IMG/VR virus record: IMGVR_UViG_3300035183_000841
Location: 1-64,000 of that record
Direction: 5' to 3' (one strand)
Source: a virus
DNA: 64,000 bases
Shown here piece after piece: positions 1,798-18,261 of the stretch; positions within the stretch are counted from its first letter, which is position 1, and each line of letters starts with the position of its first letter. A program made the translations under genes and the position numbers. Under the pieces are notes generated by a model that worked only from the letters and a program-made list of their open reading frames with translations, was not told the origin of the DNA and ran no database searches.

Positions 1798-1867
1798 GGT
1801 TCCGGTACGCACTAAAATCCGCGTGCCGGAAGAGTCGGAGTCGGAAAGGAGGAGTGGGAAGGTGAGG

Positions 1868-2239: not shown

Positions 2240-2431
2240 ATGCTGTATCAAGACCGCATCAACGGAGCAGTCGTATGCGAGGACCATGCCGGTCCAGTGA
2301 GGCATTCGGACTGCTACGATTTCGTGCCGATGACACACACCGAGGAGTCTCTCTGGCGAGAGTTCATCACGTCGATCCACGGCCCGAACGCATCACTGTG
2401 TGAGTGGTGTAGGGCTCGAGTTATGACTTGA
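2240..2431 (+). CDS. Small Zn-finger-like protein
   Basis: CEDH ... CEWC. Confidence 0.6.
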   Translation: MLYQDRINGAVVCEDHAGPVRHSDCYDFVPMTHTEESLWREFITSIHGPNASLCEWCRARVMT

Positions 2432-2448
2432 AAGGAGGTGAAACGGGG

Positions 2449-3384: not shown

Positions 3385-3488
3385 AGACTCAGGGTTGCTC
3401 TCTTGTGAAGAATCCAAGAATCCACGATTTGTATGGATTCTTCAAACCGATAAGTACCTATTCTAACAACTGAAAGGAGGACTTAGAT

Positions 3489-4241: not shown

Positions 4242-4318
4242 AGTAATTGTCTAGTGTAAGTAATGCTGGTAGAATCGCTTTACTGCTAGAAGGTCTGGCA
4301 GGAGAAAGGAGGGAATAA

Positions 4319-4738
4319 GTGCCTAAGGTGCCACAGGAGGGAGCGGTCACTCCTCCGAAGCGTCGTGGCGGCAGGGTTAGTATCCGCCAGCAGGAAGTGC
4401 TTGAGGCACTCGAGATGCTCAAGAAGGGGGAGGGCAGTCTCGTCGAGAGCGAGGATGGAGTCAAGTACCTGTGCATCGCGCTTGATCCGTCGAAGGTGGA
4501 GACGGTCGCTCAGGCGAAGTCAGCCCTCTACAACCTGCGTTGGAAGTTGAACCCGAAGAACCCTAAGACGGCAGGGGATGCCGAACTCTACGAGTATTTC
4601 TTCTCCAAGGAGTTCGGGCGTGGAGCAGTGAAGGTGGAGGAGCAGAGCGGGGAGATCCTCCTGTTCGTTCCACTGTCGTTCGCCGCGCAGACCATCACTG
4701 CAAAGAAGAAGAAGGAGAAGGAGCCGGCAACGGCCTAG
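4319..4738 (+). CDS. Hypothetical basic protein
   Basis: SD AAAGGAGG; followed by hairpin. Confidence 0.7.
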   Translation: MPKVPQEGAVTPPKRRGGRVSIRQQEVLEALEMLKKGEGSLVESEDGVKYLCIALDPSKVETVAQAKSALYNLRWKLNPKNPKTAGDAELYEYFFSKEFGRGAVKVEEQSGEILLFVPLSFAAQTITAKKKKEKEPATA

Positions 4739-4755
4739 TGGCATGATCCCGGTAC

Positions 4756-4808
4756 GGGGTAGGGGGGAGTGTATACCCCAGGGGGGTATCCCGGATACCC
4801 CCTACCCC
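4756..4808 (+). terminator. Hairpin after 4319-4738
   Basis: GGGGTAGGGG ... CCCCTACCCC inverted repeat. Confidence 0.45.
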
Positions 4809-4833
4809 TACCGCCAAGTGGGGAGGGGGTGCA

Positions 4834-5019
4834 GTGTACGAGATGGGTAGGTTCTTAGTGACCGAGAGGTCGGGACGACTGTTCGGCGGGGAGAAGCGGT
4901 TCGGTTACATCTGCAAGCACTGCGGAGCGTTGCGGACCGATGTAGCCATGTCACTACGCGATCTGGACAAGGAATACGAGAAGCACGAGTGCGACAAGGA
5001 GGAGGGCGCAGATGAGTGA
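4834..5019 (+). CDS. Small Zn-finger protein
   Basis: CKHC ... HEC. Confidence 0.55.
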   Translation: MYEMGRFLVTERSGRLFGGEKRFGYICKHCGALRTDVAMSLRDLDKEYEKHECDKEEGADE

Positions 5020-5266
5020 GATGGACAGATTCATCACTGCTATCCTTCACGAGATCGCCGAGACGAGCAGTGAGGACACCCCAAGCGGGCGCAGCATCAA
5101 GGCTTTCGACCTAGCAGTGTCGAAGGATGAGGAGGCGCTCGACCTGTGGAGGCAGGAACTCAGGTCGGCTGCCGCTCAGGCGGCGCGTCGGTGGACGAAT
5201 CGTAGTCGCTATCGCGCCTACAAGGAGCAGAGGGACCGAGCTCGACTTGAGGGGGAGAGACAGTGA
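5012..5266 (+). CDS. Hypothetical protein
   Basis: Overlapping start/stop, SD. Confidence 0.6.
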   Translation: MSEMDRFITAILHEIAETSSEDTPSGRSIKAFDLAVSKDEEALDLWRQELRSAAAQAARRWTNRSRYRAYKEQRDRARLEGERQ

Positions 5267-5469
5267 AGTCTTATGATGTCCTCGGCTATACCTTCCCAGG
5301 GTATGCCGTATGCCTCGACTGTCATCTCAAGGTGGAGCATGAGTGCGGCGTTGAAGATTCTTGCTACCCCATCTTCGCCGACTCAGAGTGGGATTACATC
5401 CCCGCTTGTGACATCTGCGGGGAAGCCATAGAGGGAGTGAGAATCACGGAGGAGTTTCGCTCGCTCTAA
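5263..5469 (+). CDS. Small Zn-finger protein
   Basis: CLDC ... PIFADSEWD ... CDIC. Confidence 0.65.
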   Translation: MKSYDVLGYTFPGYAVCLDCHLKVEHECGVEDSCYPIFADSEWDYIPACDICGEAIEGVRITEEFRSL

Positions 5470-5526
5470 AAGAGCGGCGAGAAGAGAGTCGGAATCTGAA
5501 GCGGAAAAGTGACTAGAGGAGGTTAG

Positions 5527-5793
5527 GTGCTACTCCCGATCGACAACTACGATACAATGGTAAACACCCACGAAGTGGCGGCTTGCGGTTTGGCGTACGA
5601 CAAGGACATCCCTAAGGAGGCCCAGAAGCAGGCTGCGGAGAACTTAGAGCCGTTCAAGCGCTGGTACATCTGGGTCACTCTGAAGAGTGGCCACAACATC
5701 ACTGGAATGAGTCTCGGTTATGGACCAGGAGCGAAGAAGTTGGGGAAGGAGATGCTACACAGCCTCGCCAACGCTATCGCAGGAGGTGACTAG
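5527..5793 (+). CDS. Hypothetical protein
   Basis: SD AGGAGG. Confidence 0.6.
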   Translation: MLLPIDNYDTMVNTHEVAACGLAYDKDIPKEAQKQAAENLEPFKRWYIWVTLKSGHNITGMSLGYGPGAKKLGKEMLHSLANAIAGGD

Positions 5794-5865
5794 AGATGGC
5801 ATCACCAGGAGACCGAGCACTCTTGCGCGAAGCGTGCGATAAGTCTCCATGGACGGTGAGGTGAG

Positions 5866-6042
5866 ATGTTCTTCAAGCGCCACTATGAGTTCATCGCAGA
5901 GGTTCTGAGTCGTATCCAGCCGCCTTCGGTGAGGCTTCAGGTGGCATCGGAGTTCGCGAAGGCGTTCAAGGAAGACAACCGTAACTTCGATACGGCAAAG
6001 TTCATCGCCGCAGTTAGGCGGCAGAGGGGAGGCGACAGGTGA
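5866..6042 (+). CDS. Small phage protein (KRHYEFIA...DNRNFDTAKFIAA)
   Basis: SD GAGGTG; not in ORF track. Confidence 0.65.
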   Translation: MFFKRHYEFIAEVLSRIQPPSVRLQVASEFAKAFKEDNRNFDTAKFIAAVRRQRGGDR

Positions 6043-6320
6043 AGTTCATCAAGATCGAGAACAAGGTTTACGGACTGTTGCCGGTCGAGATGTTGTTCCG
6101 AGCAACTGATATCATCAGTAGGAACGAGGAAGTGGCCGCGAAGGACGAGATGGGCCAGTCCGATTGGTCGGATTGGGAGGAACTCGACACGGCCTACTCC
6201 GAGTTCGTCCACGACCTCGTTGACCACTTCTTCTCCGACGGGACAGACACCATCGCCAAGATCGAGTCGATCGCTGGAAGTTGGGATCCGGGAGTTGACA
6301 TCGATGTTTCTGACATCTGA
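6039..6320 (+). CDS. Hypothetical acidic protein
   Basis: GTGA overlap with upstream gene. Confidence 0.6.
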   Translation: MKFIKIENKVYGLLPVEMLFRATDIISRNEEVAAKDEMGQSDWSDWEELDTAYSEFVHDLVDHFFSDGTDTIAKIESIAGSWDPGVDIDVSDI

Positions 6321-6399
6321 GTTATCTGGTACAATCATCTTGAGCATCGCATTCTTAGTGTATCTGTTGATCGATAAATGGCTAGATAGGAGGAGTTAG

Positions 6400-6519
6400 A
6401 TGTTATTCGGAGTTCAGACTGAGATCCTTATCGCGGCAGGCGCACTCGCGCTCATGATCCTCTACATCCTTGCCGGGGAGTTCAGGTTCTGGCGGCAGAA
6501 GCGGAACTTCTGGAGGTGA
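6400..6519 (+). CDS. Small single-pass membrane peptide
   Basis: SD AGGAGG; hydrophobic stretch ILIAAGALALMILYILAG then basic tail. Confidence 0.6.
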   Translation: MLFGVQTEILIAAGALALMILYILAGEFRFWRQKRNFWR

Positions 6520-6521
6520 AG

Positions 6522-6662
6522 ATGGGAAAGCCACTGAAGAAGGCACAGGAACGACTCGAGCGGAGGATCCACGGCGGAGACGGAACCCATCGCGCTGGTA
6601 AGTGCGGGTGCGACTTGTGGTTGAAGAAGGGATACCGCAAGCCGGGCTCGATGAAGAAGTGA
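6522..6662 (+). CDS. 46-aa basic His/Cys peptide, paralog 1
   Basis: HGGDGTHR..CGC..W.KKGYRKPGSMKK; paralog at 13276. Confidence 0.75.
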   Translation: MGKPLKKAQERLERRIHGGDGTHRAGKCGCDLWLKKGYRKPGSMKK

Positions 6663-6776
6663 CTAAATCCTGGGACTAAAATTCGGCCCCGTATAAGGTC
6701 CGACTCCGAAAAGGTAGTTAAAGTCCACTAGACTCTCTCGGGGGGGGCAGAGTCGGCACTCTGCCGGCGGGCACTC

Positions 6777-6792
6777 TCGAACAGGTGTTCGG
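6777..6792 (+). promoter_or_regulatory. LexA/SOS-type box
   Basis: TCGAAC-AGGT-GTTCGG vs actinobacterial consensus TCGAAC-N4-GTTCGA. Confidence 0.65.
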
Positions 6793-6810
6793 ATGAGTGG
6801 GGAAATAGTA

Positions 6811-6840
6811 TTGTCAACTCTGATCCCGAGATGGTATCAT
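6811..6840 (+). promoter_or_regulatory. SigA-type promoter
   Basis: TTGTCA-N18-TATCAT with TG extension. Confidence 0.7.
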
Positions 6841-7215
6841 ATGTGTAGGATCGACAGAGAGTTCGATCCTAGAGTGAACCTTGAAAGTTGCATAGAGGGG
6901 GAGGCGACTCCGGAGTCGGGACCGAGATGGCCCGAGGAGTCGCCTGGCTAACAGGCCAACGGAGATCCACTCATGCCATGGGGGCACGGAGTGCGAAACG
7001 GGGACCGGACACTCTCCCGGTTCCACTCACCTCGTATCCACTCCTCGGCGGTCGAGCGGAAGTGACAAGGGGAAGAGTCCGCCACCGTCGCCCATCGGAC
7101 CTCTGAGTCGATCCCCTCGACGAGAGTCGAGACGACACCGCAGCCTGGCCGAGCCCCGAAGAAGTCCTCACTAAAGACTCCGAGTGAGCAAACACGGAGT
7201 CGGAAGGAGTCGGGG

Positions 7216-7848
7216 ATGGACATGACGTTCGTCTGTCAGAAAGCACTCCACCAGGAGTGCTCCGGGAACATCCTGGAGCGGACCCGACGTGGAGTGCGCA
7301 GGCACCGGTGCGAGTGCCGGTGCCACGACGGAGTCGCCGGCGCCGGAGTGGCCAAGCCCAAGCGGGCCACCGCTCCGAAGGGCGAGCGGTGCGCACTCTG
7401 CGGCGCCGTCGGCGACCTCGTGAAGTCGGTCGGCGAAGAGTGGATCTGCGCCGACCGATGCAGCGGCAGCGTGGCATTCACTCAGCGGACCAAGAAGTGC
7501 CCTGAGTGCAACGGGGTGATGTGGCGACTCACCCCGCCAGAGGAGGAGGACGAGGACGAGGGAGTGTGGGTCTGCTCCAGCCGAGCCCACACTCCGATCC
7601 CGGAAAAGAGTCGGCTGACCATCCGCAACGGGGTCATCCGGCTCACTTTCCCCGACGGGAGAGTCTACGAGCAGACCGTCGGGAAGACCAGGAAGAGTCG
7701 CAAGAAGAAGAAGCCGGCGAAGCGGGTCCACACTCACAAATGGGTGTTCGACCCGGAAGAGTCGGTCATGCGCTGCGCTTCCTGCCGGAAGCGTGGCGAG
7801 AAGAAGCAACTCCGCCGGGCGCCGCGACGCCGGCGGCAGACACTCTGA
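7216..7848 (+). CDS. Basic multi-Zn-finger protein
   Basis: C..H..C...CECRCH, CALC...C..C, CPEC, H..W...CASC; SD GGAAGGAG. Confidence 0.7.
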   Translation: MDMTFVCQKALHQECSGNILERTRRGVRRHRCECRCHDGVAGAGVAKPKRATAPKGERCALCGAVGDLVKSVGEEWICADRCSGSVAFTQRTKKCPECNGVMWRLTPPEEEDEDEGVWVCSSRAHTPIPEKSRLTIRNGVIRLTFPDGRVYEQTVGKTRKSRKKKKPAKRVHTHKWVFDPEESVMRCASCRKRGEKKQLRRAPRRRRQTL

Positions 7849-7917
7849 CTCTACTAAAGATCAGAGTGGAAAAAGGGCCGAGTCGGCAAGGGAGTGAGAG
7901 TGAGGACAGGAGGGACC

Positions 7918-8190
7918 ATGCAGACGTTCGACGAACTCTACGAGCAAGCCTACAACATCGCAGTCATCGGCGCGTCGAACCCGATCGGCGTTGCCGGCAC
8001 TCTGCACGAAGCCATGTTGTTCCTGAGTCGGAAGGGGTTCGACCACTCCGACATCAGGAACTCAACACCCATCCGGGCCATCGCGGCCCAATTGAACTTC
8101 CTCCTCGGGCAGGGACTCGGTCCCGAGGAGTCGGATCTCGGGCTCCTCATGACGTGGCGAGAGGAGCTCAGTCGGAAGGCGGAGGAGTAA
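7918..8190 (+). CDS. Hypothetical helical protein
   Basis: SD AGGAGG before MQTFD. Confidence 0.65.
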   Translation: MQTFDELYEQAYNIAVIGASNPIGVAGTLHEAMLFLSRKGFDHSDIRNSTPIRAIAAQLNFLLGQGLGPEESDLGLLMTWREELSRKAEE

Positions 8191-8207
8191 GGAAGGAGGG
8201 AGTCACG

Positions 8208-8462
8208 ATGGCCTGGAAGACACTCAAGACCATCTCTGCCATCCGTCAGGGGGAGTCGGGGGGGTTCCTCCCTGGGGGGGACTCTATCAACATCTCACTC
8301 GTCGAGGTGCGAGGCAAGCGACTCATCGACGTGCGAGTGTTCGGAGGGAGGGGCTACAATGGCCCCACCAAGGCCGGCTTCGCACTCGACGAGGCGTCAC
8401 TCAGCGCCCTCATCACGGCACTCACCGCCGCGAAGAAGGCGCTGAAGGACAAGAAGAAGTAG
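8208..8462 (+). CDS. PC4/YdbC-like ssDNA-binding protein
   Basis: ISLVEVRGKRLIDVRVF....PTKAGFAL matches the PC4 pattern; SD AAGGAGG. Confidence 0.75.
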   Translation: MAWKTLKTISAIRQGESGGFLPGGDSINISLVEVRGKRLIDVRVFGGRGYNGPTKAGFALDEASLSALITALTAAKKALKDKKK

Positions 8463-8473
8463 AATCCACTCTT

Positions 8474-8547
8474 GAGTGGGGTGAGGCGCTGTGGGGGTGG
8501 AGTCACCTTAGGCGCCGGGACCACGTATCCACGGCCTCACCCCACTC
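8474..8547 (+). terminator. Long stem-loop
   Basis: GAGTGGGGTGAGGC ... GCCTCACCCCACTC, 14-bp stem. Confidence 0.5.
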
Positions 8548-8602
8548 TCAACCCCCGCTAAAGATGGCGGGGCAAGAGAGTCGGACTCGGGAAGGAGTGA
8601 GA

Positions 8603-8758
8603 GTGAAGGTCTTCTGGTGGGTGCTTGAGGGCCCTAACGGGGAGTTGCTCCCCGGCAAGGAGGGCGGGCTGCTGGACTCCTTCGGCACGCGGGTGGCGGG
8701 GCCGTACCCGACTCTCCGCGAGGCCAAGGCGGCAATCAACTCGATCCTGAACCGCTGA
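8603..8758 (+). CDS. Small hypothetical protein (GPYPTLREAK)
   Basis: SD GGAAGGAG before GTG. Confidence 0.6.
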   Translation: MKVFWWVLEGPNGELLPGKEGGLLDSFGTRVAGPYPTLREAKAAINSILNR

Positions 8759-8769
8759 AGGGAAGCGAG

Positions 8770-8958
8770 ATGAATTGCTCACTCTGCGGGCAGATGATGT
8801 GGGACAACTCCATGTGCCCGCGTTGCGACTTCGCGCCGGAGCCGGAGTCCCCTCAGAGGTCGCCGTACTGCTCACTCTGTGGGGCTCTGATGGACGGAGC
8901 AGGAGAGTTCCTGTTCTGTCCGAACTGCGACCCTGAGTATGTGAAGGGAGGTGACTAG
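8770..8958 (+). CDS. Double Zn-ribbon protein
   Basis: CSLC..CPRC / CSLC..CPNC internal duplication. Confidence 0.7.
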   Translation: MNCSLCGQMMWDNSMCPRCDFAPEPESPQRSPYCSLCGALMDGAGEFLFCPNCDPEYVKGGD

Positions 8959-9108
8959 ATGACCACCATCGGGTGGCCACTCCGGGAAGTCGAGATCCCG
9001 GATGAGTTCCAATTCGACCTGCCGGTCCTCGAGCCCGTCGAGGAGCCGGCGACTCTGCCGGTGGAGGAGCCGGCGACTCTGCCGGTCGAGGAGCCGGCAC
9101 TCGTCTAG
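8959..9108 (+). CDS. 49-aa acidic Pro-rich peptide with (LPVEEPAT) repeats
   Basis: SD GGAGGTG; 24-bp tandem repeat; not in ORF track. Confidence 0.7.
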   Translation: MTTIGWPLREVEIPDEFQFDLPVLEPVEEPATLPVEEPATLPVEEPALV

Positions 9109-9153
9109 GTTCACTCTCCCTTCGGGGAAACACGATTCAGAAAGGAGTCGGAA

Positions 9154-9333
9154 ATGTTCATCGTCAACGTCCCCATGACACTCGGCGGGAAGCGTGTCTC
9201 GCGGCGACTCGCCGAGCAGGCCGCAGTCGAGCACGTCAAGCGGGAGAAGCGAGTGCTCACTCGGGTCGTCGGGGTCGTCCCGTCGGCCCAGAGTGGGACG
9301 TTCCAGGTCGTCTTGCAGAAGGTCCGACTCTGA
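9154..9333 (+). CDS. Small hypothetical protein
   Basis: SD AAAGGAG. Confidence 0.6.
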   Translation: MFIVNVPMTLGGKRVSRRLAEQAAVEHVKREKRVLTRVVGVVPSAQSGTFQVVLQKVRL

Positions 9334-9467
9334 ATTCGGGTTTGTCGGCACTCCACCCCCGCTAAATCCCCGTCCGCCGGAGTGCCGACTCGCGGAGAGT
9401 CGGAGTGCGCCGCCGCCACCCCCGAGCGCGCTCCGACTCTCCGCCTTCCCCCAGGAAAGGAGGAGTG

Positions 9468-9743
9468 ATGAACCTGCCCCCAGGCGTGGGAGTGTTCGAC
9501 ATCCCCGGTAACCGACCCGAGGATGAGGTTTGGGAACTCTTCATCGAAGAGTTCTACAAGCGCTTCAAGGAGCAGTATCCCTCATCCTTCAAGAGGATGG
9601 AGTCGCTCCTCGACGACGACGAGTTCTTCGACGCGCTGGGCGACGCACTCATCATCGCCTACGAGATGGGCGAGAGTGCCGGCTTCTCGAGTGGCCGGCT
9701 CGAGGCAGAGTTGGATCGGTACTACGAGGAGGTGGAAGAGTGA
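9468..9743 (+). CDS. Highly acidic protein
   Basis: SD AGGAGG; D/E-rich. Confidence 0.65.
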   Translation: MNLPPGVGVFDIPGNRPEDEVWELFIEEFYKRFKEQYPSSFKRMESLLDDDEFFDALGDALIIAYEMGESAGFSSGRLEAELDRYYEEVEE

Positions 9744-9955
9744 AGGTAATCCTGACCACCGAGTCCGGCGAGCAGCTCATCCTCATCGAGCGACTCGCCC
9801 CGGAGGATTTCGAGTCGCCGGCGTCGGAGTGGCTGATGGCCCAGCTCCGAGAGGCGATCGCACTCCGGAAGTCGGTGGATGAGCAGTTCGACCGTCTGAA
9901 CGAGACCTTGTTCGACCGGGAACTCTCCTTCCCGGTCGAGGATTTCGAACTCTGA
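9740..9955 (+). CDS. Acidic hypothetical protein
   Basis: GTGA overlap. Confidence 0.6.
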   Translation: MKVILTTESGEQLILIERLAPEDFESPASEWLMAQLREAIALRKSVDEQFDRLNETLFDRELSFPVEDFEL

Positions 9956-10086
9956 GAAAGGAGGTGACTATGAGAACGCGACTCGGTGAGTTCATCATCA
10001 TCTGGTCGCTCGTGACCGCACTCTTCTGCGAGTGGGTCATCGCTCTCCGTATCGTCCGGTAAGAGCCCGAAAGGAGGGAGTTGCTT

Positions 10087-10500
10087 ATGGCAAAGTCGAG
10101 CACGAAGAAGTCGCAGCCGAAGAAGTCGCAGCCGAAGAAGTCGCAGCCGGCCAAGCCCAAGACCAAGGAGTCGCCGAAGAAGGAGTCGCCGGCCCGGAAG
10201 AGGAGTCCCCGTGGCCAGGGCGACGTGAGCCGTATCGACTCCGTCGTCACGGCTGTCCTCGAGGGGCGACTCGGGAGCGCCAGGGACGGCGTGAAGGCGG
10301 AGTTGCAGCTCAACGGCACTCCCAGGAGTGCCTGGTGGAACTGGCTCTGGTACCACCGTCAGCGCCAGACTCCGACCTACGCCGCGATGATTTACCGAGG
10401 GATGCCACTCGTGGAGGAGAGTGGCAAGGTCTTCCTCATCTGGAGTGGCGAGCAGGTCGCCGAGATGAGGAAGGCGTACAAGGCAGCGAAGAAGTCGTAA
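10087..10500 (+). CDS. Basic protein with histone-like (KKSQP)3 N-terminal tail
   Basis: 15-bp repeat AAGAAGTCGCAGCCG x3; SD AAAGGAGG. Confidence 0.7.
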   Translation: MAKSSTKKSQPKKSQPKKSQPAKPKTKESPKKESPARKRSPRGQGDVSRIDSVVTAVLEGRLGSARDGVKAELQLNGTPRSAWWNWLWYHRQRQTPTYAAMIYRGMPLVEESGKVFLIWSGEQVAEMRKAYKAAKKS

Positions 10501-10508
10501 CTCCATCC

Positions 10509-10540
10509 GTGGGGGAGTCGGGGCAACCCGACTCCCCCAC
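10509..10540 (+). terminator. Hairpin with GCAA tetraloop
   Basis: GTGGGGGAGTCGGG-GCAA-CCCGACTCCCCCAC. Confidence 0.65.
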
Positions 10541-10599
10541 CCGCTAAAGGAACCGGTCGGCAGAGTCCGACTCGCGGAGAGTCGGAAAGGAGCATTCGG

Positions 10600-11817
10600 A
10601 TGTACCGCTCTGTGAATCAGGAATATGAAGTCTACATCGCGGAGTCCGACGGCGACAATCGCCGGCGACTCGGCGACAAGCAGGTGTGGTGGTTACTGAC
10701 TCTCCTCAATCGCGAGGACGAGGACAGCTGGCTGTCACTTCCGGCATACCGGCCACTCATGAACGCCATCGCGGATCACAACTCCATGAGGGCGACCGGG
10801 TGCCGACCGGGGTGCCCACTCCCAGCGACGCACGTCGTCGTGCGCCGGCGCTGCGAGTGCCGGAAGGGCGACGTGCTGTTCCGACTCGTCCACGAGTCGG
10901 AGCTCAAGATGTCCCATCGACTCGTGGAAGAAATCGTGGACGGAGTCCGCGAAGCCTTCGAGGGGGGCGGGGCGGTCCTCATCACGAACTCCACGACATC
11001 GTACTACCCCGGCATCAGGAGTGTCGGCCGCGATGTCGATCCTCTGGAGATCGAAGTCGGGAAGCGGGCGGCGGAAGCGGTGAGGTACCCACTCTGGGTG
11101 TCCATCGCGAGGAACCTGCGTCGCGCTAGGGAGACCGGTCAGGCACTCCTCATGGAGAACCTCAGCGGCGGCGAAGTGTTGGATTACGTCACTCACAACG
11201 CCGCCTTCTGCGAGGGAGTGCCCGAGGAGGCCGACCGGCGGCTCGACCCGCAGGAGCACGAAGTCGCCGTCTTCGGAGTGCACGGCTGGTCCGTCTTCGA
11301 CACTCTGAACCCGACGCTCCGCATCGCGGTCTGGCTCTCGGAGTCGGCCACCTGGGCGAAGCAGGCGGCGGAAGGAAACTCCATCATCGGGCTCCGCTTC
11401 TGGAGTCTCGATTACGACGGGCCGGTCACTCTGAGGGGCTCGTTCGGAGCGGCTTGGACGAGTCCGCGTCTCACGGCGACGTGCGACAAGCTGCACTCCG
11501 CTCCGGACAGTGAGCACACCTGCGGCATCTACGCCATCCTCCGGGACGGGGTGCAGCCCGAACTCTCCTCGGCGGGTTTCTGGCGGTACGGGACTCCGAC
11601 GTTCGGACTCGTCTCCTGCTCCGGCAAGGTCATCGTCCACGAGCGGGGAGTCCGTAGCCGGCACGCCACGTGCCGACTCCTCATCGTGTCGGACGAGGAC
11701 AAGCGGCAACTCATCCTCGCCAACCTGCCGGCATGGCGGGAGACCCGAGTCCTCACCTACGACGAGGCACTTCGGGCCATCGAGGCGGGGCTGCCGGCGT
11801 CGGAACTCATGAAGTGA
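10600..11817 (+). CDS. Protein with C-terminal G.R.W...CG.YA...G.V..H..G.R domain (paralog of 16470-17171)
   Basis: IGLRFW, CDKLHSAP..HTCGIYA, FGLVSCSGKVIVHERGVRSRHA. Confidence 0.75.
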   Translation: MYRSVNQEYEVYIAESDGDNRRRLGDKQVWWLLTLLNREDEDSWLSLPAYRPLMNAIADHNSMRATGCRPGCPLPATHVVVRRRCECRKGDVLFRLVHESELKMSHRLVEEIVDGVREAFEGGGAVLITNSTTSYYPGIRSVGRDVDPLEIEVGKRAAEAVRYPLWVSIARNLRRARETGQALLMENLSGGEVLDYVTHNAAFCEGVPEEADRRLDPQEHEVAVFGVHGWSVFDTLNPTLRIAVWLSESATWAKQAAEGNSIIGLRFWSLDYDGPVTLRGSFGAAWTSPRLTATCDKLHSAPDSEHTCGIYAILRDGVQPELSSAGFWRYGTPTFGLVSCSGKVIVHERGVRSRHATCRLLIVSDEDKRQLILANLPAWRETRVLTYDEALRAIEAGLPASELMK

Positions 11818-11914
11818 GGAAGGGGCGCGGATGAATGTTCCTTCCTCCTGAAGAACCCATACTCCAGTACCTAGAGTGTCGGTATCCAGAAGTCCGAAAG
11901 GGGGCGCTGAAAAG

Positions 11915-12181
11915 ATGTTCCAAGATCGTATCAAAACACTCTCCTGCGGATGCAACTACGACACCCTCACAGGAGCCTGTACCGCACAGTGCCGGTACCA
12001 CCGCATCTCCGAGGCGGTGAGACTCTTGAACGAGGTGCTCCGGGAGATGGACGAGGAGGCGGGAGAGTCTGCGGCTGAAGAGTTGGATCTTCCAGAGTAC
12101 GACGACATCTGTGACGAGTGCGGACACCCGCATCTCGAGGGCACCCCATGCCCCATCTGCCACATGGACTCGGACTTCTGA
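11915..12181 (+). CDS. Cys-rich Zn-binding protein
   Basis: CGC..C...C..H; CDEC..H..CPIC. Confidence 0.6.
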   Translation: MFQDRIKTLSCGCNYDTLTGACTAQCRYHRISEAVRLLNEVLREMDEEAGESAAEELDLPEYDDICDECGHPHLEGTPCPICHMDSDF

Positions 12182-12435
12182 GTCGGAGCATCTAGGGGGA
12201 CTCCCGGATATCGACCCGGAACGGACTCTAGGAAGGGGGGGACGGAGGGCCTAACCCCACTCTACCGCCCAGACTCACTAAACCTAACTCCCTACGAGTG
12301 TGAAAACCATTAGCCCCACTCTTGAGGCTAACGAGTGAACATCCGCCCTGAGCCATCCCGCCCGGAGCCGGCGGCCACTCAAACCGGGCGACTCTGAGTG
12401 CCGACTCCGCAGGGGCGCGACTCAAAGGAGGAATC

Positions 12436-12669
12436 ATGCCTGTCAATCGGTACCACATCACCTTCGAGTTCGAGGTCACCATCCCGGCCAACCGACTCCG
12501 CGACCTCGCCGACTTCGGCGAAGACCCGGAGACTCGGTTCCTGGAGGAGTTGGAGGAGTACCTGACCATCCGCGACTTCGAGAAGGTCGTGGAGTCGTAC
12601 CTCCAGGACTACGTGGCCTACGACATCAAGGTTGGGGGAGGTGGAGTGAAGAAGATCAAGAAGATGTGA
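12436..12669 (+). CDS. Hypothetical protein
   Basis: SD AAAGGAGG. Confidence 0.65.
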   Translation: MPVNRYHITFEFEVTIPANRLRDLADFGEDPETRFLEELEEYLTIRDFEKVVESYLQDYVAYDIKVGGGGVKKIKKM

Positions 12670-12732
12670 CTTCGTACCCTTGCCGGCATTGTCACTCTGA
12701 ACACGTCCCTGCTACAAGAAAGGAGACTCGAC

Positions 12733-12930
12733 ATGGGAGTGTACAACCCCGACGGCTCCTGGGAGCCACTCGCCCCTGAGGAGAAGTTCATATTCCGCCC
12801 ACTCTCGCCTGAGGAGGTTCTCGAGTTCCGCAAGTACGCACTCGAGAACGATCCGCCGGCCGACACTCCGGTCAGCATCCTGCATCCCGTCTGCGTGGAC
12901 ATCTGGAGGATGCGGGGAGTGCTGAAGTAG
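12733..12930 (+). CDS. Hypothetical phage protein (FRPLS.EE..EFRKYA...HPV)
   Basis: SD AAAGGAG. Confidence 0.65.
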   Translation: MGVYNPDGSWEPLAPEEKFIFRPLSPEEVLEFRKYALENDPPADTPVSILHPVCVDIWRMRGVLK

Positions 12931-13275
12931 AACTCTCAAACCCTGAAGTTGAGATGAAGGTCATCCTCCAGCCGTCCTTCAGACTCATCAAGAAGGAGTC
13001 CAGGAAGGAGGCAGTCAAGAAGGCGCACAGAGAGTTCCGCCGGCAGATCCGGGCGGAGAAGACCCTGAAGTTCCGGTAGCCCACTGCGAGTGACGTTGCC
13101 GGCCGGGGGGAGTCGGGCCGCGTGAGTCGCCGGCCGGCTCCCCCCCTGGGCGGGCCGTGTGAGGTCGCCGCCGGCTCCCGCTCGGTCGCCCCCCGGTCGG
13201 CCGCTCGCAGTCGGGCACTCACAGTGGCGCACTCAAGAGTCGGACTCGTAGAGTCCGACTCCGGGAAGGAGTGAC

Positions 13276-13416
13276 ATGGCAAAGGCACAGCGTAAGGCAC
13301 TGAAGAAGTTGGCTATCCGGGTCCACGGTGGGGACGGACTCCACCGAGAGTCCGGGTGCGGCTGCGCAGTCTGGGCGAAGCAGGGCTACCGCAAGCCCGG
13401 CAGCCTCAAGAAGTGA
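13276..13416 (+). CDS. 46-aa basic His/Cys peptide, paralog 2
   Basis: HGGDGLHR..CGC..W.KQGYRKPGSLKK. Confidence 0.75.
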   Translation: MAKAQRKALKKLAIRVHGGDGLHRESGCGCAVWAKQGYRKPGSLKK

Positions 13417-13799
13417 ACGACCCTGACTCTGGGGCCCGACTCGGTCGCGGTCGGGCCCCAGGGTCGCGCTCCAGACTCTGAGTCCCCCACTCAAAGTCGG
13501 GACGTATAAAGTCCCGACTCTGGCCGGCTGCGCCGGCGACTCCACACTCAAAGTCGCCTCGTATAAAGTCCGACTCCAAAGGGCACTTCGAAGTCGCGAC
13601 TCTGAGGCGGCGACTCTCTGGACGGCGGCGCTTCAAGATCAGAACCTCACTTCGAAGTGAGATCCACCTCACTTCTTGGAGTCCTTCACTATAAGGGCCA
13701 ACTCCAGAGTGGCCGACTCTGCTGGAGTCGGACTCCGAAGAGTCAACTGCCCCACTGGACCAGTCCTAGTTGGAGTCTACCGAGTCACTGGTGGTTGTC

Positions 13800-13824
13800 G
13801 GATCCGTGACGTAGGTGGTACAAT
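13800..13824 (+). promoter_or_regulatory. Repeated promoter-like element
   Basis: GGATCCGTGACGTAGGTGGTACAAT; near copy at 15653 (GGATCCATGACGTAGATGGTACAA); extended -10 TGGTACAAT. Confidence 0.55.
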
Positions 13825-13860
13825 CCCGTCACGATGGACGGTAGGCACGGGAGGAAGGGG

Positions 13861-14031
13861 GTGAGTCGCATGGTCTACGTCATCGTGCCGGCAGCATCCG
13901 AGACGGCGGAGTCGGTCACTCTGACGGCGGCGCTGCTCTGGGCGGCCAGCCGCGTCCTCGAGGGGCACTCCATCCGGATCCACACTCCGGACGAGGGGGT
14001 CGTGGAGTTCCTCGAGGAGGACGAGGAGTAA
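13861..14031 (+). CDS. Small hypothetical protein
   Basis: SD, followed by hairpin at about 14043-14079. Confidence 0.55.
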   Translation: MSRMVYVIVPAASETAESVTLTAALLWAASRVLEGHSIRIHTPDEGVVEFLEEDEE

Positions 14032-14432
14032 GCGACTCCACGGAGAGGGGCCGGCGACTCTGTCGCCGGCCCTTTCTCTGTGCCCTCGTGGATCGGCACT
14101 CTCACTCTGGCAGAAGTCGGCCACTCACAGTCGCGCACTATAAAGTCCGCGCTATAAAGTCCCGACTCTGCAGGATTTCCCCACTATAAGTGCCCACTCA
14201 AGAGTGGCCGACTCTGCTACCGACCCAGAGGGAGTCGCACTCCAGAGTCGGCCACTCCCACTCTGGTGTCAGAGTCAGCACTTTCTTGCGCCGGCCGGTG
14301 GCCGACTCAGATCTGGGCGACTCCGAGTGCCCACTCTGGGCGACGCACTCTGAGTGCCGCACTCGGAAGTCGGCACTGCCGAGTGGGCAAAAGAGAAGGC
14401 CGGCCCCTGAGTCGGGACCGGCCTTCCTCCCC

Positions 14433-14633
14433 CTACTTCTCGATGCCGACCCACCACACAGTGTGGTGGTCGATCACTTCGGCCACGTGAGTGGCCTCGG
14501 GGTCGATGCAGTAGCACCGACTCCCGTCGATGTCCTGGAGGCACGACCACGTGCCCCAGGACGCCGCGAGTCCCGCTTCCCAGATGGACTCCTCGGCTTC
14601 GTCGTGGTTCGTGAATCGGTAGGTGTTCTTCAT
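14433..14633 (-). CDS. Hypothetical protein (MKNTYRF...)
   Basis: SD GGAGGAG; start re-called. Confidence 0.6.
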   Translation of the reverse strand: MKNTYRFTNHDEAEESIWEAGLAASWGTWSCLQDIDGSRCYCIDPEATHVAEVIDHHTVWWVGIEK

Positions 14634-14644
14634 CTCACTCCTCC

Positions 14645-14950
14645 CTACTTCGCGTCCGCGATCCGGGCGCGGAGTTCCTTGACGAGCGCCCTCACGCTCG
14701 TCGGATCGAACTCCACCTCGAGGAGTCCGTCCGATGCCTCCCGCTCCTTCCAGCGCCGGACCGCACTCAGGTCCTCCAGATCGTCCTTGTTCGGCCACCG
14801 GAGGATGATGCATCCGTCGGTCTCGAGTCCGTACCCCATACGGAGCATCATGGCGGCGAACATCGCCGCCGTCTTGGAGTCGGCCTCCTCGACCACGTGG
14901 TCCGTGCCGGCCACGGACGGGAAGGCGAGGACAAGATCCTCCATTCTCAC
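14645..14950 (-). CDS. Hypothetical protein
   Basis: SD AAGGAGGTG. Confidence 0.65.
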   Translation of the reverse strand: MRMEDLVLAFPSVAGTDHVVEEADSKTAAMFAAMMLRMGYGLETDGCIILRWPNKDDLEDLSAVRRWKEREASDGLLEVEFDPTSVRALVKELRARIADAK

Positions 14951-15015
14951 TCACCTCCTTCCTCCTACTCGAACCTTCCGCTAGGCTCCCTCCCGCCGGA
15001 TCTCACTCTAGGGGC

Positions 15016-15234
15016 TTATCGGTCCACGTAGGCTCGCCGCACGTCCACCACCATGCGTGCGGCTCCTGCGGTGCCTTCCGACTCCAGGCACGCTTCGCAG
15101 ATCTGGTTGAGTCCGATCATCCCCTCGTGCGCCCATGCGCAGGATTGCAGGTGGCCGCACTCCAGCTCGACGGCCAGCGCCCAGAAGAGTCGCCGGCGGT
15201 TCCTCACGTGCTCGGGAATCCTCAGAGTCCGCAT
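15016..15234 (-). CDS. Zn-finger protein (LECGH...CEAC)
   Basis: SD GGAGG. Confidence 0.6.
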   Translation of the reverse strand: MRTLRIPEHVRNRRRLFWALAVELECGHLQSCAWAHEGMIGLNQICEACLESEGTAGAARMVVDVRRAYVDR

Positions 15235-15323
15235 GATTCCTCCTCCCTCGGCGGGAGGGAGTCTGGCGGAGGGCTCAAGTAGAGTCTCTATGATGTTCTC
15301 AAGGTACCGTACTACCGTGCCGT

Positions 15324-15352
15324 ATCGTACCGCGATTGCTCGAGCCTAGCAA
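15324..15352 (-). promoter_or_regulatory. SigA-type leftward promoter
   Basis: TTGCTA-N17-TACGAT on the minus strand. Confidence 0.6.
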
Positions 15353-15371
15353 GTATCGTCTTGACGCAACA

Positions 15372-15387
15372 CCGAACGTATGTTCGA
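15372..15387 (-). promoter_or_regulatory. LexA/SOS-type box
   Basis: TCGAAC-ATAC-GTTCGG on the minus strand. Confidence 0.65.
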
Positions 15388-15577
15388 GCCTCAGGATCGG
15401 ACGGGTTCCAGACTCCAAGCCCGGCGGCGGGTGAGTGAGGAAAGGGCGCGGCATGATCTTCACTCATGAGTCGAAGTACCTTCCCGACTCTACTATAAGT
15501 CCCGTCGTATAAAGTCCCGACTCCATTGGAGTCGCACTCTGCCGGAATGTTTGGCCTCGGGGTCAACGTTGGGTCGG

Positions 15578-15608
15578 GAGCTCAACGTTGAGCTCGGCGC
15601 TCAAGGTT
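15578..15608. repeat. 18-bp palindrome plus left copy of 25-bp direct repeat
   Basis: GAGCTCAACGTTGAGCTC; AACGTTGAGCTCG-N3-CTCAAGGTT. Confidence 0.75.
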
Positions 15609-15760
15609 TCGGATCGTCGTGGGGGCGCGCCCGGATCGTCGTGGGGGTTGTCGGATCCATGACGTAGATGGTACAAGGCGCGCCCGGCCACATAGCAAGC
15701 GCCCCGGCCACGTGGCCGGGGCGCTGATGCTATGGCCGAACGGGCGCTCTATCCCTATCC

Positions 15761-16219
15761 CTACTTGTTCGCCTTGAGGGCGCGCTTGTGCTCGGCCACG
15801 GCCTCACGGATGAGGGCGCGGTCGGCCACGATGTAGCAACGCCCGTTGGCCTCGATGATGGGCGCCCGCAGCATGAGCACCCATCCGATGCGCTGGTACA
15901 GGTCGGCGCTGTGCGCCGAGCCCTCCGGCCTCAATCGGTTTGTGATGAGGCAATTGAACACCTTCCCGATTGAGGGACCGTGGCCGCCTTCCGGGCGCAG
16001 CGGGAGGTCGGCTTCGATGCGCACGGCCACGTTGTCCGTGCGCTCCTCCGAGGCCGCGCTGTAGCCACGCGGCCACAAGATAGCGCCCCACAGCGCCCGC
16101 GAGGGCGCGTGAGCGCCCGAGGCCGCGGCCTCGGCCGCGGCCTCAAGCGCGGCCACGATGGCCGCTGTAGCGTTGCTCGGGCGCGAGGCCGCCCGAGCGC
16201 GCGCGTTGCGCTTACTCAT
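15761..16219 (-). CDS. Ala/Arg-rich hypothetical protein in a standalone GC-rich cassette
   Basis: SD GAGGAG; own promoter; hairpin at about 15700-15725 downstream. Confidence 0.65.
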   Translation of the reverse strand: MSKRNARARAASRPSNATAAIVAALEAAAEAAASGAHAPSRALWGAILWPRGYSAASEERTDNVAVRIEADLPLRPEGGHGPSIGKVFNCLITNRLRPEGSAHSADLYQRIGWVLMLRAPIIEANGRCYIVADRALIREAVAEHKRALKANK

Positions 16220-16259
16220 GATGGCTCCTCTCTGCGCCCGTTCGACCATAGCACCGTGG

Positions 16260-16288
16260 ACGATACCATCTTCGGGCGCGCCCGTCAA
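16260..16288 (-). promoter_or_regulatory. SigA-type promoter
   Basis: TTGACG-N17-TATCGT with TG extension. Confidence 0.65.
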
Positions 16289-16317
16289 CATCTTACTCTA
16301 CCATAAGACTGGGGCTT

Positions 16318-16342
16318 AACGTTGAGCTCGAGTCTCAAGGTT
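16318..16342. repeat. Right copy of 25-bp direct repeat
   Basis: AACGTTGAGCTCG-AGT-CTCAAGGTT. Confidence 0.75.
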
Positions 16343-16469
16343 AGGGCATGAGTGCGACACCGTGGGGGCGCAGGCCCCGGGGGCGCGGGGCCACCCATCT
16401 CCGACGGCCACTAAAATTCCGCCCGGAAACATCTCCGGAGGCAAGCCGCATCTCCGACAGCCACTTGCC

Positions 16470-17171
16470 TCATGAGACATCCAGGATGTGGAACCTCACT
16501 CCGGGGTACGCGGAGATGTCGATGTTACCCGTCGCGACCGAAGGGATGAACACCTCACGTACCTTCGCGTACTCCGCTCGGTACCCGTAGGTATGCTCGA
16601 AAACCTTGCCGTGCAAGGTGATCACGCCGATGGCGTGGAGCCCTCCCCTCGGAAGCCCGTTAACCGCACCGGGTTTCCAGGCGTAGAACCCGCACCGGGC
16701 ATGGCGGGCGCACCCGGAGGAGAGCCGCATACCTCCGGACTTCATGAACGCCATGGGGTTCACGCACCGCGATGGGCCGACCTCCTCTTCCCAGGAGAAA
16801 TCCACCACCCAGGAGCGCAACCTCCGATCCTGGTTGGCATCGACCGACCAGAGCCTAACGCCGACGAGTCCTTGGTCGGCCCAGTCCCTCGCCGCGTTGA
16901 TCGCCCCAGCGACCATGAGCGTGGTGAACTGGCACTCATGCCCCCGATGGCCCGTCGTCGAACGGTCGAGGAACGAACAGTTGCAGACGTTCACCCCTTC
17001 GGCGTACCGGGCATCGCCGACCCATCCGATGTCGTACCCCTCTTCCCTGCGGTCGATGATGAGCCCTACGTGCATCCGGTGGAGCCGTTGGAGCGCCACG
17101 GTTATCGCCTCGGTGGTGAGCATCGCTCCGTGGCTCGAATAGTAGACGACCGGCACGGCGTTAGACCTCAT
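16470..17171 (-). CDS. Protein with G.R.W...CG.YA...G.V.EH..G.RA domain (paralog of 10600-11817)
   Basis: VGVRLW, CGFYAW, IGVITLHGKVFEHTYGYRAEYA. Confidence 0.75.
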   Translation of the reverse strand: MRSNAVPVVYYSSHGAMLTTEAITVALQRLHRMHVGLIIDRREEGYDIGWVGDARYAEGVNVCNCSFLDRSTTGHRGHECQFTTLMVAGAINAARDWADQGLVGVRLWSVDANQDRRLRSWVVDFSWEEEVGPSRCVNPMAFMKSGGMRLSSGCARHARCGFYAWKPGAVNGLPRGGLHAIGVITLHGKVFEHTYGYRAEYAKVREVFIPSVATGNIDISAYPGVRFHILDVS

Positions 17172-17469
17172 CGGACATCGGGAGCTCGAAATACCCTTTG
17201 CGCACCATGAGTGCGATGATGGCGTATCCCGCCATGTCGAGCCAACTATCGTCGAGTCCTTCGTTCACGGGGGCGTTGCCCCGTTCGATGAGGTTCTTGA
17301 TCCTGGCGAACTTGTCCCATATCCGCACCAGGAGCGCCCTCTCAGGGCCGAACGGCGAATGCAAGATGTTGTACGGGCCGTAGTCGTGTTGCTTCCTCAC
17401 GACCGTATCGCGGATCTCTTTGACCACGGCATCGATGGCCTCCTCGAAGGAGGATGGAGATCTCTTCAT
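17161..17469 (-). CDS. Nucleotide modification-associated domain 1 (DUF1599-like, all-alpha NTP-PPase fold)
   Basis: KQHDYG..N, VRIWDKFARIKNL, E.LDDSWLDMAGYAII. Confidence 0.8.
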   Translation of the reverse strand: MKRSPSSFEEAIDAVVKEIRDTVVRKQHDYGPYNILHSPFGPERALLVRIWDKFARIKNLIERGNAPVNEGLDDSWLDMAGYAIIALMVRKGYFELPMSDEV

Positions 17470-17802: not shown

Positions 17803-17990
17803 GGTGCAAGCATTGCGGTGCAACGCAGATGATATCTGCCCGATACTGCCTCATCAACACCTGGCCTAGGTGCCACGACGAGGCGATGCATCTAGAGGAG
17901 ACCACCGCCGACATCGGGCAGATTATCAACGACATCAACCGCGTATCTTGGAGGATCTGGCGTGGAGAGCGTGACAAGAAGAAGAAGTGA
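17757..17990 (+). CDS. Zn-ribbon protein
   Basis: CKHC ... WPRCH...M. Confidence 0.6.
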   Translation: MATTTKKDDAPDTLVRCKHCGATQMISARYCLINTWPRCHDEAMHLEETTADIGQIINDINRVSWRIWRGERDKKKK

Positions 17991-18261
17991 TGAGTGGAAG
18001 ATATCTGCGAAGTGCAGGGAGTACGACCCGGAATGGTGGTTCGAAGATGCATCTCCAGAGGAGAACAGCCGCGCCATCTGGATATGCCTGAACGAGTGTC
18101 CGGTGAAGGACACATGCCTCGAGTACGCCGTGACCCACATGATCGAGCACGGCATCTGGGGTGGGCTCCGGGCCTATGCGAGGCGGAAGTGGCAGGAGTT
18201 CAGCGGGTTCGTGCCGACCGAGGAGCGTAGGCCCATCATCATCGACACCAGGAAGCTCTGA
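17962..18261 (+). CDS. whiB: WhiB-family Fe-S transcription factor
   Basis: C...DPE.WF, ICLNECPV...CLEYA, GIWGG. Confidence 0.92.
   Translation: MESVTRRRSDEWKISAKCREYDPEWWFEDASPEENSRAIWICLNECPVKDTCLEYAVTHMIEHGIWGGLRAYARRKWQEFSGFVPTEERRPIIIDTRKL

Follow-up and report, generated by a model that had tools for sequence, protein, structure and literature searches.

The first 64 kb of the virus record IMGVR_UViG_3300035183_000841 of IMG/VR (84,709 b in all, called G000 here; the 64 kb are referred to as the window) contain a domain, at positions 6663-15550, which is saturated on both strands with a single short word, GAGTS, or SACTC in the other orientation (S stands for G or C). The domain comprises 8,888 bp with 313 GAGT/ACTC words, 269 of which carry the S flank. 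A domain of about 9 kb saturated with GAGT/ACTC had been described in an earlier model reading of the letters alone (the sequence-only reading), and its saturation proved to be even stronger than was claimed there. The enrichment is independent of codon usage, symmetric with respect to the strands and sharply bordered; the words are evenly spaced, leave an exclusion zone at short distances and are conserved in a close relative. The interpretation that we favour, with a probability of roughly 0.4, is that the words are docking boxes for a protein which would bind double-stranded DNA cooperatively and, as a coat, would address the whole module as a unit.

Protein-binding boxes are known in arrays of ten or twenty before genes, and over-represented words are known genome-wide. 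The domain described here is of a different scale: it is kilobase-sized and sharply bordered, and throughout its genes codon preference gives way to a single 5-bp word. Should the reader be a coat protein, the array would be a simple and portable address for a whole gene module, of interest for phage early-gene control, defence evasion and synthetic biology. The quantitative signature, consisting of context-dependent codon choice, the coefficient of variation (CV) of the gaps and the exclusion zone, can be searched for in other phages.

Density, borders and identity of the word

GAGT and ACTC together occur at 35.2 per kb in the domain; base composition would give 60.4 words and a second-order Markov model 215.6, an expectation which is raised by the word's own inflated trinucleotides. 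To the right, positions 15551-84709 hold 492 words (7.1/kb) against 535 expected, and this low baseline continues to the end of the record. To the left, positions 1-6662 form an intermediate zone (plus strand) with 99 words, or about 15 per kb (14.9/kb), against 51 expected. Counted in 2-kb bins, the words number 62, 73, 57, 77 and 55 between 6001 and 16000, compared with 25-34 in the three preceding bins and 9-25 in the 24 following bins of the window. The right border is sharp: a cumulative-excess change-point places it at 15536, the last dense site, and the drop after about 15550 that the sequence-only reading had described is thus borne out. On the left, dense sites are found from 6703 on, directly after a stop codon. 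A hand count of 18 flanked words in 14161-14400, made in the same reading, is exact (seven GAGTS and 11 SACTC). The domain is also richer in G+C than the rest, with ~63% against ~52%.

When 6001-16000 was compared with the rest of the window, ACTC/GAGT ranked first among all 4-mers (324 vs 81) and CGACTC/GAGTCG first among all 6-mers (86 vs 6.9). The context of the word can be written S-S-S-ACTC-Y (Y being C or T); the flank positions -3 to -1 of ACTC are G or C in 75-86% of cases, and position -1 is G or C in 86% and T in 2%. Among the 5-mers of the domain, GAGTC occurs 72 times, GACTC 69, GAGTG 53 and CACTC 75 times, where 6-8 would be expected from the rest, whereas GAGTA and TACTC (5 and 2) are not enriched and the A/T-flanked forms in general reach at most 1.6-fold. 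The selected word is GAGTS/SACTC, with an enrichment of about 10-fold. GAATC and GATTC (5 and 2) are scarcer than elsewhere in the genome and GAWTC (W being A or T) is not enriched; hence, the signal is GAGTS and not GANTC. Enzymes such as PleI, MlyI, N.BstNBI, HinfI and CcrM belong to restriction-modification systems of the GAGTC/GANTC type, and it had been suggested that the words might be decoys for a host defence of this kind. That suggestion is not supported, given that GAGTG/CACTC are enriched like GAGTC/GACTC and that GAATC/GATTC are scarce. The two orientations are nearly equally frequent, with 170 ACTC and 154 GAGT in 6001-16000.

Independence from codon usage and composition

Genes were called with a crude, purpose-written scorer, which gave 21 genes in the domain, 17 to its left and 99 to its right. 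The domain genes (5,874 bp) contain 170 words, of which 80 read GAGT and 90 ACTC on the sense strand. Shuffling synonymous codons within each gene left 91.0 ± 5.7 words (maximum 107 in 200 shuffles; z 13.8), shuffling the order of the codons left 62.0 ± 6.4, and back-translation of the domain proteins using the codon frequencies of the other genes gave 57.9 ± 5.7. Under the synonymous shuffle, the genes to the right of the domain show no deviation (429 words vs 429.0; z 0.0) and those to the left a smaller one (90 vs 67.9; z 4.3). Density is higher still in the non-coding part of the domain, where 2,918 bp contain 135 words (46/kb) against 39.3 ± 5.4 after dinucleotide shuffling (maximum 57, n = 500). 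The statement of the sequence-only reading that the words are found between genes as well as within them, and on both strands, is thus correct. When all 4-mers were scored against the synonymous null, ACTC/GAGT came out on top in the domain (z 12.9) and the near-variant GAGC/GCTC was depleted (67 vs 93). In control regions, the top 4-mer reached z values of 3.8-7.9 (nine blocks of G000) and 4.5 (genes of the terminal repeat of the Streptomyces phage BoomerJR). In seven of the nine control blocks this top 4-mer was CATC/GATG (z 3.8-7.9, ~1.3-1.4-fold), a mild bias that is genome-wide.

The effect on codon choice can be followed in individual contexts. Codons ending in A make up 113 of 1801 codons (6%) in the domain generally and 56 of 115 (49%) where the next codon is CTC (p 5e-32); in the rest of the genome the corresponding figures are 17% and 19%, and in the left zone (1-6662) the effect is weaker, with 222 of 1881 (12%) generally and 22 of 60 (37%) before CTC (p 1e-6). 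Likewise, leucine in the domain is encoded by CTC in 56 of 61 cases after an A-ending codon and in 59 of 114 otherwise, and glutamate is encoded by GAG in 46 of 47 cases before a codon starting with T; genes elsewhere in the genome show neither context effect. The commonest word-making codon pairs are CGA-CTC (13) and GAG-TCG (12), both of which had been named in the sequence-only reading. Since the word count exceeds the codon-level and shuffle nulls and is non-uniform along the genome, it was concluded that the word is a selected signal and no artefact of composition or codon usage; the earlier claim of selection withstands the very tests that had been proposed against it.

Spacing of the words

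The gaps between successive words are more even than random placement would give, with a CV of 0.65 against 0.98 ± 0.054 (minimum 0.84, n = 2000). Gap sizes are evenly distributed over 5-40 bp and then drop, gaps above 40 bp being rare. Words in the same orientation avoid each other at 7-12 bp (5 pairs vs 32.6 ± 5.7; minimum 14, n = 1000) and accumulate at 14-15 bp (31 vs 11.0 ± 3.2; maximum 22). Pairs in opposite orientation are overrepresented at 5-9 bp (40 vs 27.3) and underrepresented at 10-19 bp (34 vs 54.7). The words had been described as dispersed and not tandem, which is largely right, except that short runs with a 14-15-bp register occur locally. One such run of SACTC boxes is found at 14305-14365 (plus strand), within a non-coding stretch of 400 bp.

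Conservation and distribution

The same domain is present in a close IMG/VR relative, G001 (62,782 b; capsid 98% identical), at ~15.5-22.3 kb, with 229 words (33/kb). An intermediate zone of ~10 kb (5-15 kb; 9-19 words/kb) is found there as well, and the baseline density prevails elsewhere. The two records are 83-88% identical in the domain and 93-95% in the flanks, and G001 is without several of the non-coding stretches of the domain. Of 248 aligned words of G000, 203 (82%) are intact in G001, compared with 67% for all 4-mers. Among 4-mer classes, the word ranks 4th of 100 by conservation in the domain and 63rd of 132 in the flanks. In the non-coding DNA of the domain, 351 of 367 bases within words are identical (95.6%), against 1505 of 1691 outside words (89.0%; p 4e-5), a difference between word and surroundings that is absent in both flanks. 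The spacing in G001 matches that in G000 (at 7-12 bp, 6 pairs vs 22.7; at 14-15 bp, 18 vs 7.6; CV 0.61), though it is not independent of it, as 203 sites are common to both. At the 79 sites that are not shared, the alternative words are diverse, which argues against a single mutational route.

Conservation of the bias in related phages, a check proposed by the sequence-only reading, is thus found in G001 and not in G002 or BoomerJR. G002 (capsid 56% identical, 42% G+C) has no saturated word in the 28 kb examined, and in BoomerJR GAGT/ACTC occur at 1-14 per kb and no word is saturating. The domain is so far lineage-specific, and the named Streptomyces relatives of the cluster BE type are without it. 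A megablast search of a phage collection gave no match, either with the domain or with 20-40 kb. Searches with a 233-aa neighbour gene of the domain and with the 16-nt element TATAAAGTCC retrieved the one close relative alone; three other pattern matches (L037-L039) are unrelated by blastn and of ordinary word density. The public runs that contain the GAGTS domain carry the labels microbial-mat and hot-spring metagenome, and no RNA run is among those listed. Contigs from two further hot-spring runs match the domain at ~90% identity, and one contig of 17,626 b aligns, as six pieces, over 5-15175. Both domain borders are crossed by error-free contigs from the samples that are the probable source.

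A proposed coat on docking boxes

Word and flank are symmetric, they are used on both coding strands and between genes, and their spacing resembles that of a footprint, which argues for recognition on double-stranded DNA with a footprint of about 14 bp and near-continuous coverage. We infer that the reader is a protein, of phage or host origin, and propose that the domain is an array of ~270-310 docking boxes 5'-GAGTS-3', written into the sequence in either orientation and read on double-stranded DNA. The boxes would recruit a cooperatively binding protein, one protomer or dimer per box with a footprint of ~14 bp, which would coat the whole 8.9-kb module; the boxes being seldom more than 40 bp apart, a continuous coat would be possible. 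Promoter cores and two boundary palindromes (see below) would come to lie in the largest box-free gaps. The coat would handle an orphan, early-type gene block as a unit, most likely by shutting it off or shielding it, and would distinguish this block from all other parts of the genome, although ~7-10 kb next to it would be coated in a weaker form. Among the functions suggested by the sequence-only reading, loading sites for a coating protein fit best, in view of the exclusion zone, of the way the words pack at 14-15 bp and of how seldom gaps exceed 40 bp. In a broader form, which we put forward tentatively and as the more doubtful proposition, the array might be called a regional chromatin code: a 5-bp word placed every 14-40 bp by means of codon choice would recruit a dedicated coat, of phage or host make and from an undescribed family of readers, with less of it on the adjoining zone, so that a takeover-type module could be switched or shielded as a unit, independently of its individual promoters.

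The nearest analogy is with the centromere parH and the operator OF of plasmid TP228. ParG coats arrays of 5'-ACTC-3' boxes there, direct or inverted, cooperatively and with one dimer per box; a single box is insufficient and the activity rises with the number of boxes (PMC3130281). The core tetramer and its use in both orientations are thus common to the two systems. The TP228 array comprises 20 boxes within ~160 non-coding bp, strictly repeated every 8 bp and separated by 4-bp spacers that are AT-rich, whereas here ~300 boxes extend over 8.9 kb, are mostly genic and have G/C flanks, with 7-12 bp excluded and 14-15 bp packed. Moreover, no ParG or RHH_1 (ribbon-helix-helix) protein was found in G000. 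As it differs in spacing, flanks, array size and the lack of a ParG or ribbon-helix-helix gene match, the domain may be said to work like a ParG array without being a member of that group. As to a ParA-type partner (ParF in TP228), an AAA_25 ATPase (2449-3384, in the intermediate zone) was the sole ATPase seen, although no search aimed at ParA was made.

Clusters of GATC read by SeqA at oriC of E. coli and the Dam sites of phage P1 pac are further cases, in which the modification state is coupled to regional control. They resemble the domain in having a 4-bp word at ~40 per kb and a reader that needs neighbouring sites, and differ in that they occupy 160-250 bp of non-coding DNA and not 9 kb of genes. 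Genome-wide words, such as the cyanobacterial HIP1 and uptake sequences, are likewise written into genes by codon choice; they are other words and for the most part are spread over the whole genome.

A number of observations weigh against a coat. A search for the reader in the 84.7-kb record, an estimated 64% complete, gave no match to RHH_1, ParG, ParB_N or Sigma70_r2, and PF09274 and PF01402 had no matches in it even at E <= 10. Ten small proteins of the domain region match no ribbon-helix-helix family, and none of the domain proteins reaches a Pfam, PHROG or NCBIfam threshold. A 59-aa protein considered as the reader is predicted with confidence (pLDDT, the predicted local distance difference test, 90.7) to adopt a beta-alpha-beta-beta fold, not ribbon-helix-helix, and the model has no match among solved folds (PDB) at E <= 0.001. 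Atlas look-ups of two basic proteins gave 0.80-0.82, under 0.9, and are leads only. The words show no long-range periodicity, in that no spectral peak rose above a gap-permutation null. The extra conservation of the word within genes is weak: identity amounts to 95.9 vs 91.1% at codon position 1 (p 0.018), is not significant at position 2 and is 88.1 vs 83.7% at position 3 (p 0.12). Compensating gain and loss of sites is merely suggestive (8 of 45 vs 4.6 ± 1.9), and conservation as a whole is a single pairwise comparison, with the one relative that has the domain and an accessible sequence. A coat of ~300 protomers per genome copy would also be costly. We know of no phage or host system of such size and kind, and a narrow literature search found no description of a comparable GAGTS-like domain. 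Apart from these, an 84-aa PC4-like protein was set aside, with a Pfam score of 17.7 bits (cut-off 25) and a poorly predicted fold (pLDDT 59.6).

Alternative explanations

The words could instead be targets of a DNA modification, for example N6-adenine methylation, by an enzyme of phage or host, which would place a dense epigenetic mark on the module. Such a mark could shield the DNA from nucleases or guide-based defences, or tell injected copies from newly replicated ones, and the phage would then be gathering its epigenetic marks in a single region. There is exactly one A on each strand of the word, and with a site at least every ~40 bp there would be a mark inside any footprint of 30-40 bp; strand symmetry fits as well. 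G000 encodes a divergent methyltransferase of the Dam family (D12; 78786-79712, plus strand), without a relative in the PDB, that scores 50 bits on TIGR00571 (cut-off 114.85) and 41 bits on PF02086. A short C5-methylase-like gene lies at 59002-59643 (minus strand), and a gene with DUF1599, named "nucleotide modification associated domain 1", is found at 17161-17469 in the minus-strand block adjoining the domain. Both methylases are at most candidate writers of such a mark, however, and a methylase of the N6_N4 class to which HinfI and CcrM belong was not detected (PF01555, no match at E <= 1 in the record, the controls being positive in 14 of 14 genomes). Orphan methylases of phages usually modify the genome throughout, but in the remaining 69 kb the word is no commoner than expected by chance, and an enzyme alone predicts neither the exclusion at 7-12 bp nor the peak at 14-15 bp. 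Modification is on balance an unlikely explanation.

About equally unlikely, in our estimation, is a signal at the RNA level, where GAGUS and SACUC in transcripts would pair with each other, or would be bound or cut, in the service of mRNA stability, protection from Rho or RNase, or timed decay. Compared with dinucleotide-shuffled versions of itself, the domain does fold more stably (z averages -1.54 and is below -2 in 37% of 75 windows; the flanks average -0.54 and -0.22), and perfect hairpins occur at 6.9 per kb against 2.5 per kb, 14 of 62 having the word in the stem. The excess of inverted word pairs at 5-9 nt and the presence of the word in 10 of 16 ribosome-site regions read by eye would also be in keeping with it. 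Per 120 nt, however, the native sequence folds with -47.0 kcal, a shuffle that preserves the word tokens with -41.6 and a plain shuffle with -41.0. As the token-preserving shuffle loses the extra stability, structure and word are two separate properties. The notion of "sticky-word" RNA folding as the cause was dropped, since keeping the words intact preserves hardly any of the additional stability; nor would selection for structure account for one particular word. Moreover, the two orientations are enriched alike and share their flank, in the sense strands of all genes and whichever strand is coding, as a reader of double-stranded DNA would predict.

Considerably less probable are Chi-like sites that would tame a host helicase-nuclease of the AddAB, AdnAB or RecBCD type near the genome end. 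In lambdoid phages without recombination genes (LLS, MD8), terminal Chi clusters are a case of a short word, read by the host, that is accumulated regionally by selection and against base composition; phage LLS has 23 sites, 20 of them in the active orientation and half in the last 22% of the genome (PMC12315714). The domain lies, by synteny, where relatives have their genome end or a terminal repeat of ~11 kb, and a terminal repeat at both ends would require both orientations. The terminal position is putative, though, and assemblies cross both borders unbroken. The Chi sites of LLS and MD8 are 8-mers in 20-32 copies with a strong bias to one orientation, in contrast to a symmetric, evenly spaced 5-mer that occurs once per 28-33 bp here. 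Known cases are in general strongly biased in orientation, a bias not seen in the near-equal counts of GAGT and ACTC, and have about one site per 2 kb, against one per 28 bp; even spacing, an exclusion zone and 14-15-bp packing would have no meaning for Chi.

That the words are start words of a polymerase is very improbable. In one version, a primase would use the template 5'-GAGTS-3' and make primers that begin with ACUC, T7-type primases being known to read short words with an uncopied 3' base; priming words would, however, be expected genome-wide and not in 9 kb alone. In the other version, CGACTC, or the ..CTCACTAAAG / CACTATAAG elements between the genes, would be partial promoter cores of the T7/T3 type, which some intergenic elements of the domain presumably resemble. 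Promoters, of ~23 bp in the T7 group, should be few and co-oriented with genes, whereas the word favours neither direction and occurs 313 times; the lack of a PF00940 RNA polymerase match in the record is a weak argument, as control genomes were equally silent. T7-like promoter fragments were dropped as an explanation on these two counts.

A functionless by-product of context-specific mutational bias, or of import from a donor of odd composition, would accord with the distinct composition of the domain, its greater divergence from G001 and the depletion of GAGC/GCTC, but is already disfavoured and just as improbable, since the diverse alternatives at the 79 non-shared sites indicate no single mutational path (a deaminase-type origin was dropped for this reason), random mutation predicts Poisson spacing and not the observed CV with an exclusion zone, and words are better conserved than their surroundings solely inside the domain.

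Genes and elements of the domain

The domain contains a run of 18 small genes of 30-405 aa (7216-14031, plus strand) with ribosome sites of the AGGAG type and 14-43 words per kb in every gene, and three small genes on the minus strand (14433-15207) with ~20 words per kb. The small genes are real, because third codon positions diverge most between G000 and G001. Several of the proteins are small and very basic, and basic proteins are encoded at 7216-7848, 9154-9333 and 12954-13079, among other places. Among them, a 137-aa protein (10087-10500) is a candidate DNA binder; it has an N-terminal tail of KKSQP/KESP repeats, which we take to resemble the basic tails of actinobacterial HU-type proteins. 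Two paralogous genes for basic 46-aa proteins (6522-6662 and 13276-13416), with the pattern ..HGGDG.HR...CGC..W.K.GYRKPGS.KK, are each followed by TATAAAGTCC elements; the arrangement resembles a duplicated cassette, of which one copy lies exactly at the left border. The 405-aa protein (10600-11817, plus strand) and the 233-aa neighbour outside the domain (16470-17171, minus strand) have in common a C-terminal part, in which 154 residues align at 23% identity (E 1e-6), with the pattern ..CG[IF]YA....GKV..H..G.R..A. This family is uncharacterised and has very few relatives: three relatives of the 405-aa protein were found among 5.8 billion proteins and none among viral contigs, and a profile scan of metagenome contigs confirmed 0 of 170 candidate stretches.

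A palindrome, CGAAC-N4-GTTCG, which is similar to the LexA or Cheo box, occurs exactly twice in the whole of G000, at the left edge (6778-6791) and at the right edge (15373-15386) of the domain. Both copies lie ~40 bp upstream of a -10-like hexamer of the form TA...T, which for the left copy is TGGTATCAT. In G001 the palindrome is found at 5644, where the intermediate zone starts, and at 15596 and 22183, the borders of the domain. Candidates for binding the border palindromes are LexA of the host and a regulator of phage origin. The right-hand copy lies, together with a promoter-like stretch, in the largest word-free gap (130 bp, 15282-15412). Another of the five largest gaps (13782-13863) contains a sigma-70-like extended -10 element (..GATCCGTGACGTAGGTGGTACAA; 13789-13823, plus strand), which is repeated at 15642-15676 (91%). 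Similar stretches of the form ..AACGTTGAGCTC..CTCAAGGTT.., at 15575-15610 and 16318-16345, flank a minus-strand gene of 176 aa (15761-16291), and around this interval G001 differs by ~2.5 kb of extra DNA of low G+C.

Two further kinds of element are associated with hairpins. The D1 element of ~32 nt, ACTCAAAGTC..GTATAAAGTCC(C)GACTC, is present in two copies at 13489-13577 (plus strand, non-coding), and further copies are found at 6675, 14123, 14137 and 15492, all on the plus strand and non-coding; a 9-bp hairpin at 13495-13519 has the TATAAA of D1 in its loop. A C-N-CTAAAG element occurs at 7169, 8556, 9360 and 10542 (plus strand), 45-110 nt upstream of gene starts, and in three cases within a hairpin loop (for example 8553-8572, and a 24-nt loop at ~9350-9375). 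Both look like promoter signals that would be displayed in hairpin loops. Intergenic hairpins built from the word itself occupy 10509-10586 (plus strand), with a 14-bp stem at 10509-10540 and the hairpin TCCGACTC-gcgga-GAGTCGGA at 10566-10586, which is repeated at 9385-9403. Rfam gave six matches at E <= 1, all far under the gathering scores.

The phage and the position of the domain

G000 is classed by IMG/VR as linear without end repeats, with a CheckV completeness estimate of 64%. It encodes the portal, protease and capsid of a tailed phage, and its tail-length gene has 1,951 aa. By tblastn of the portal, its closest named relatives (43-48% identity) are Streptomyces phages of ~128-131 kb of the cluster BE/BK type (Stanwilliamsviridae). 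Phages of cluster BE carry a terminal repeat of ~11 kb (PMC5764925). By gene order, the domain occupies the place of the ~11-kb terminal repeat of BoomerJR (MK359351.1) and of the genome end of Francob: it lies just left of a minus-strand block that precedes the glycosyltransferase, reductase and portal genes, as in BoomerJR. This block has 62-66% G+C, yet an ordinary word density. Synteny would therefore be consistent with the proposal of the sequence-only reading that the domain is an early, first-injected or terminal-repeat region. The BoomerJR left arm is similar in its position, in being a series of small orphan genes that have intergenic signals of their own, and in the higher G+C content of the repeat (55-60%, against 46% for the remainder); it differs in having no saturating word (its top word reaching the z of 4.5 given above) and in the direction of its genes, and no shared genes were found. 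Of the Lsr2-like and ParB-like nuclease domain proteins of cluster-BE-type phages, the latter (PF02195) had no match in G000; the domain proteins stay under family thresholds, although no search aimed at Lsr2 was made. The extra 8.6 kb on the left of G001 do not match the right part of G000, so that the two records close no circle. Contig depth is not doubled within the domain (left flank vs 7.7-9.6 kb, 10.6 vs 10.5 in X1 and 8.8 vs 9.07 in X2), but these values are unreliable, as there is one depth figure per contig.

Outside the domain, the intermediate zone includes a ThiF/E1-like gene besides the AAA_25 ATPase. A WhiB-like protein with four Cys and GIWGG, as read from the translation, is encoded at 17962-18261 (plus strand) and suggests an actinobacterial host. 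G000 also encodes glycosyltransferases, an aminotransferase, a ribonucleotide reductase and DnaB, the last two bearing inteins; these are of the LAGLIDADG type and lie within the reductase gene (22079-24841) and the gene of the DnaB-like helicase (59953-62229).

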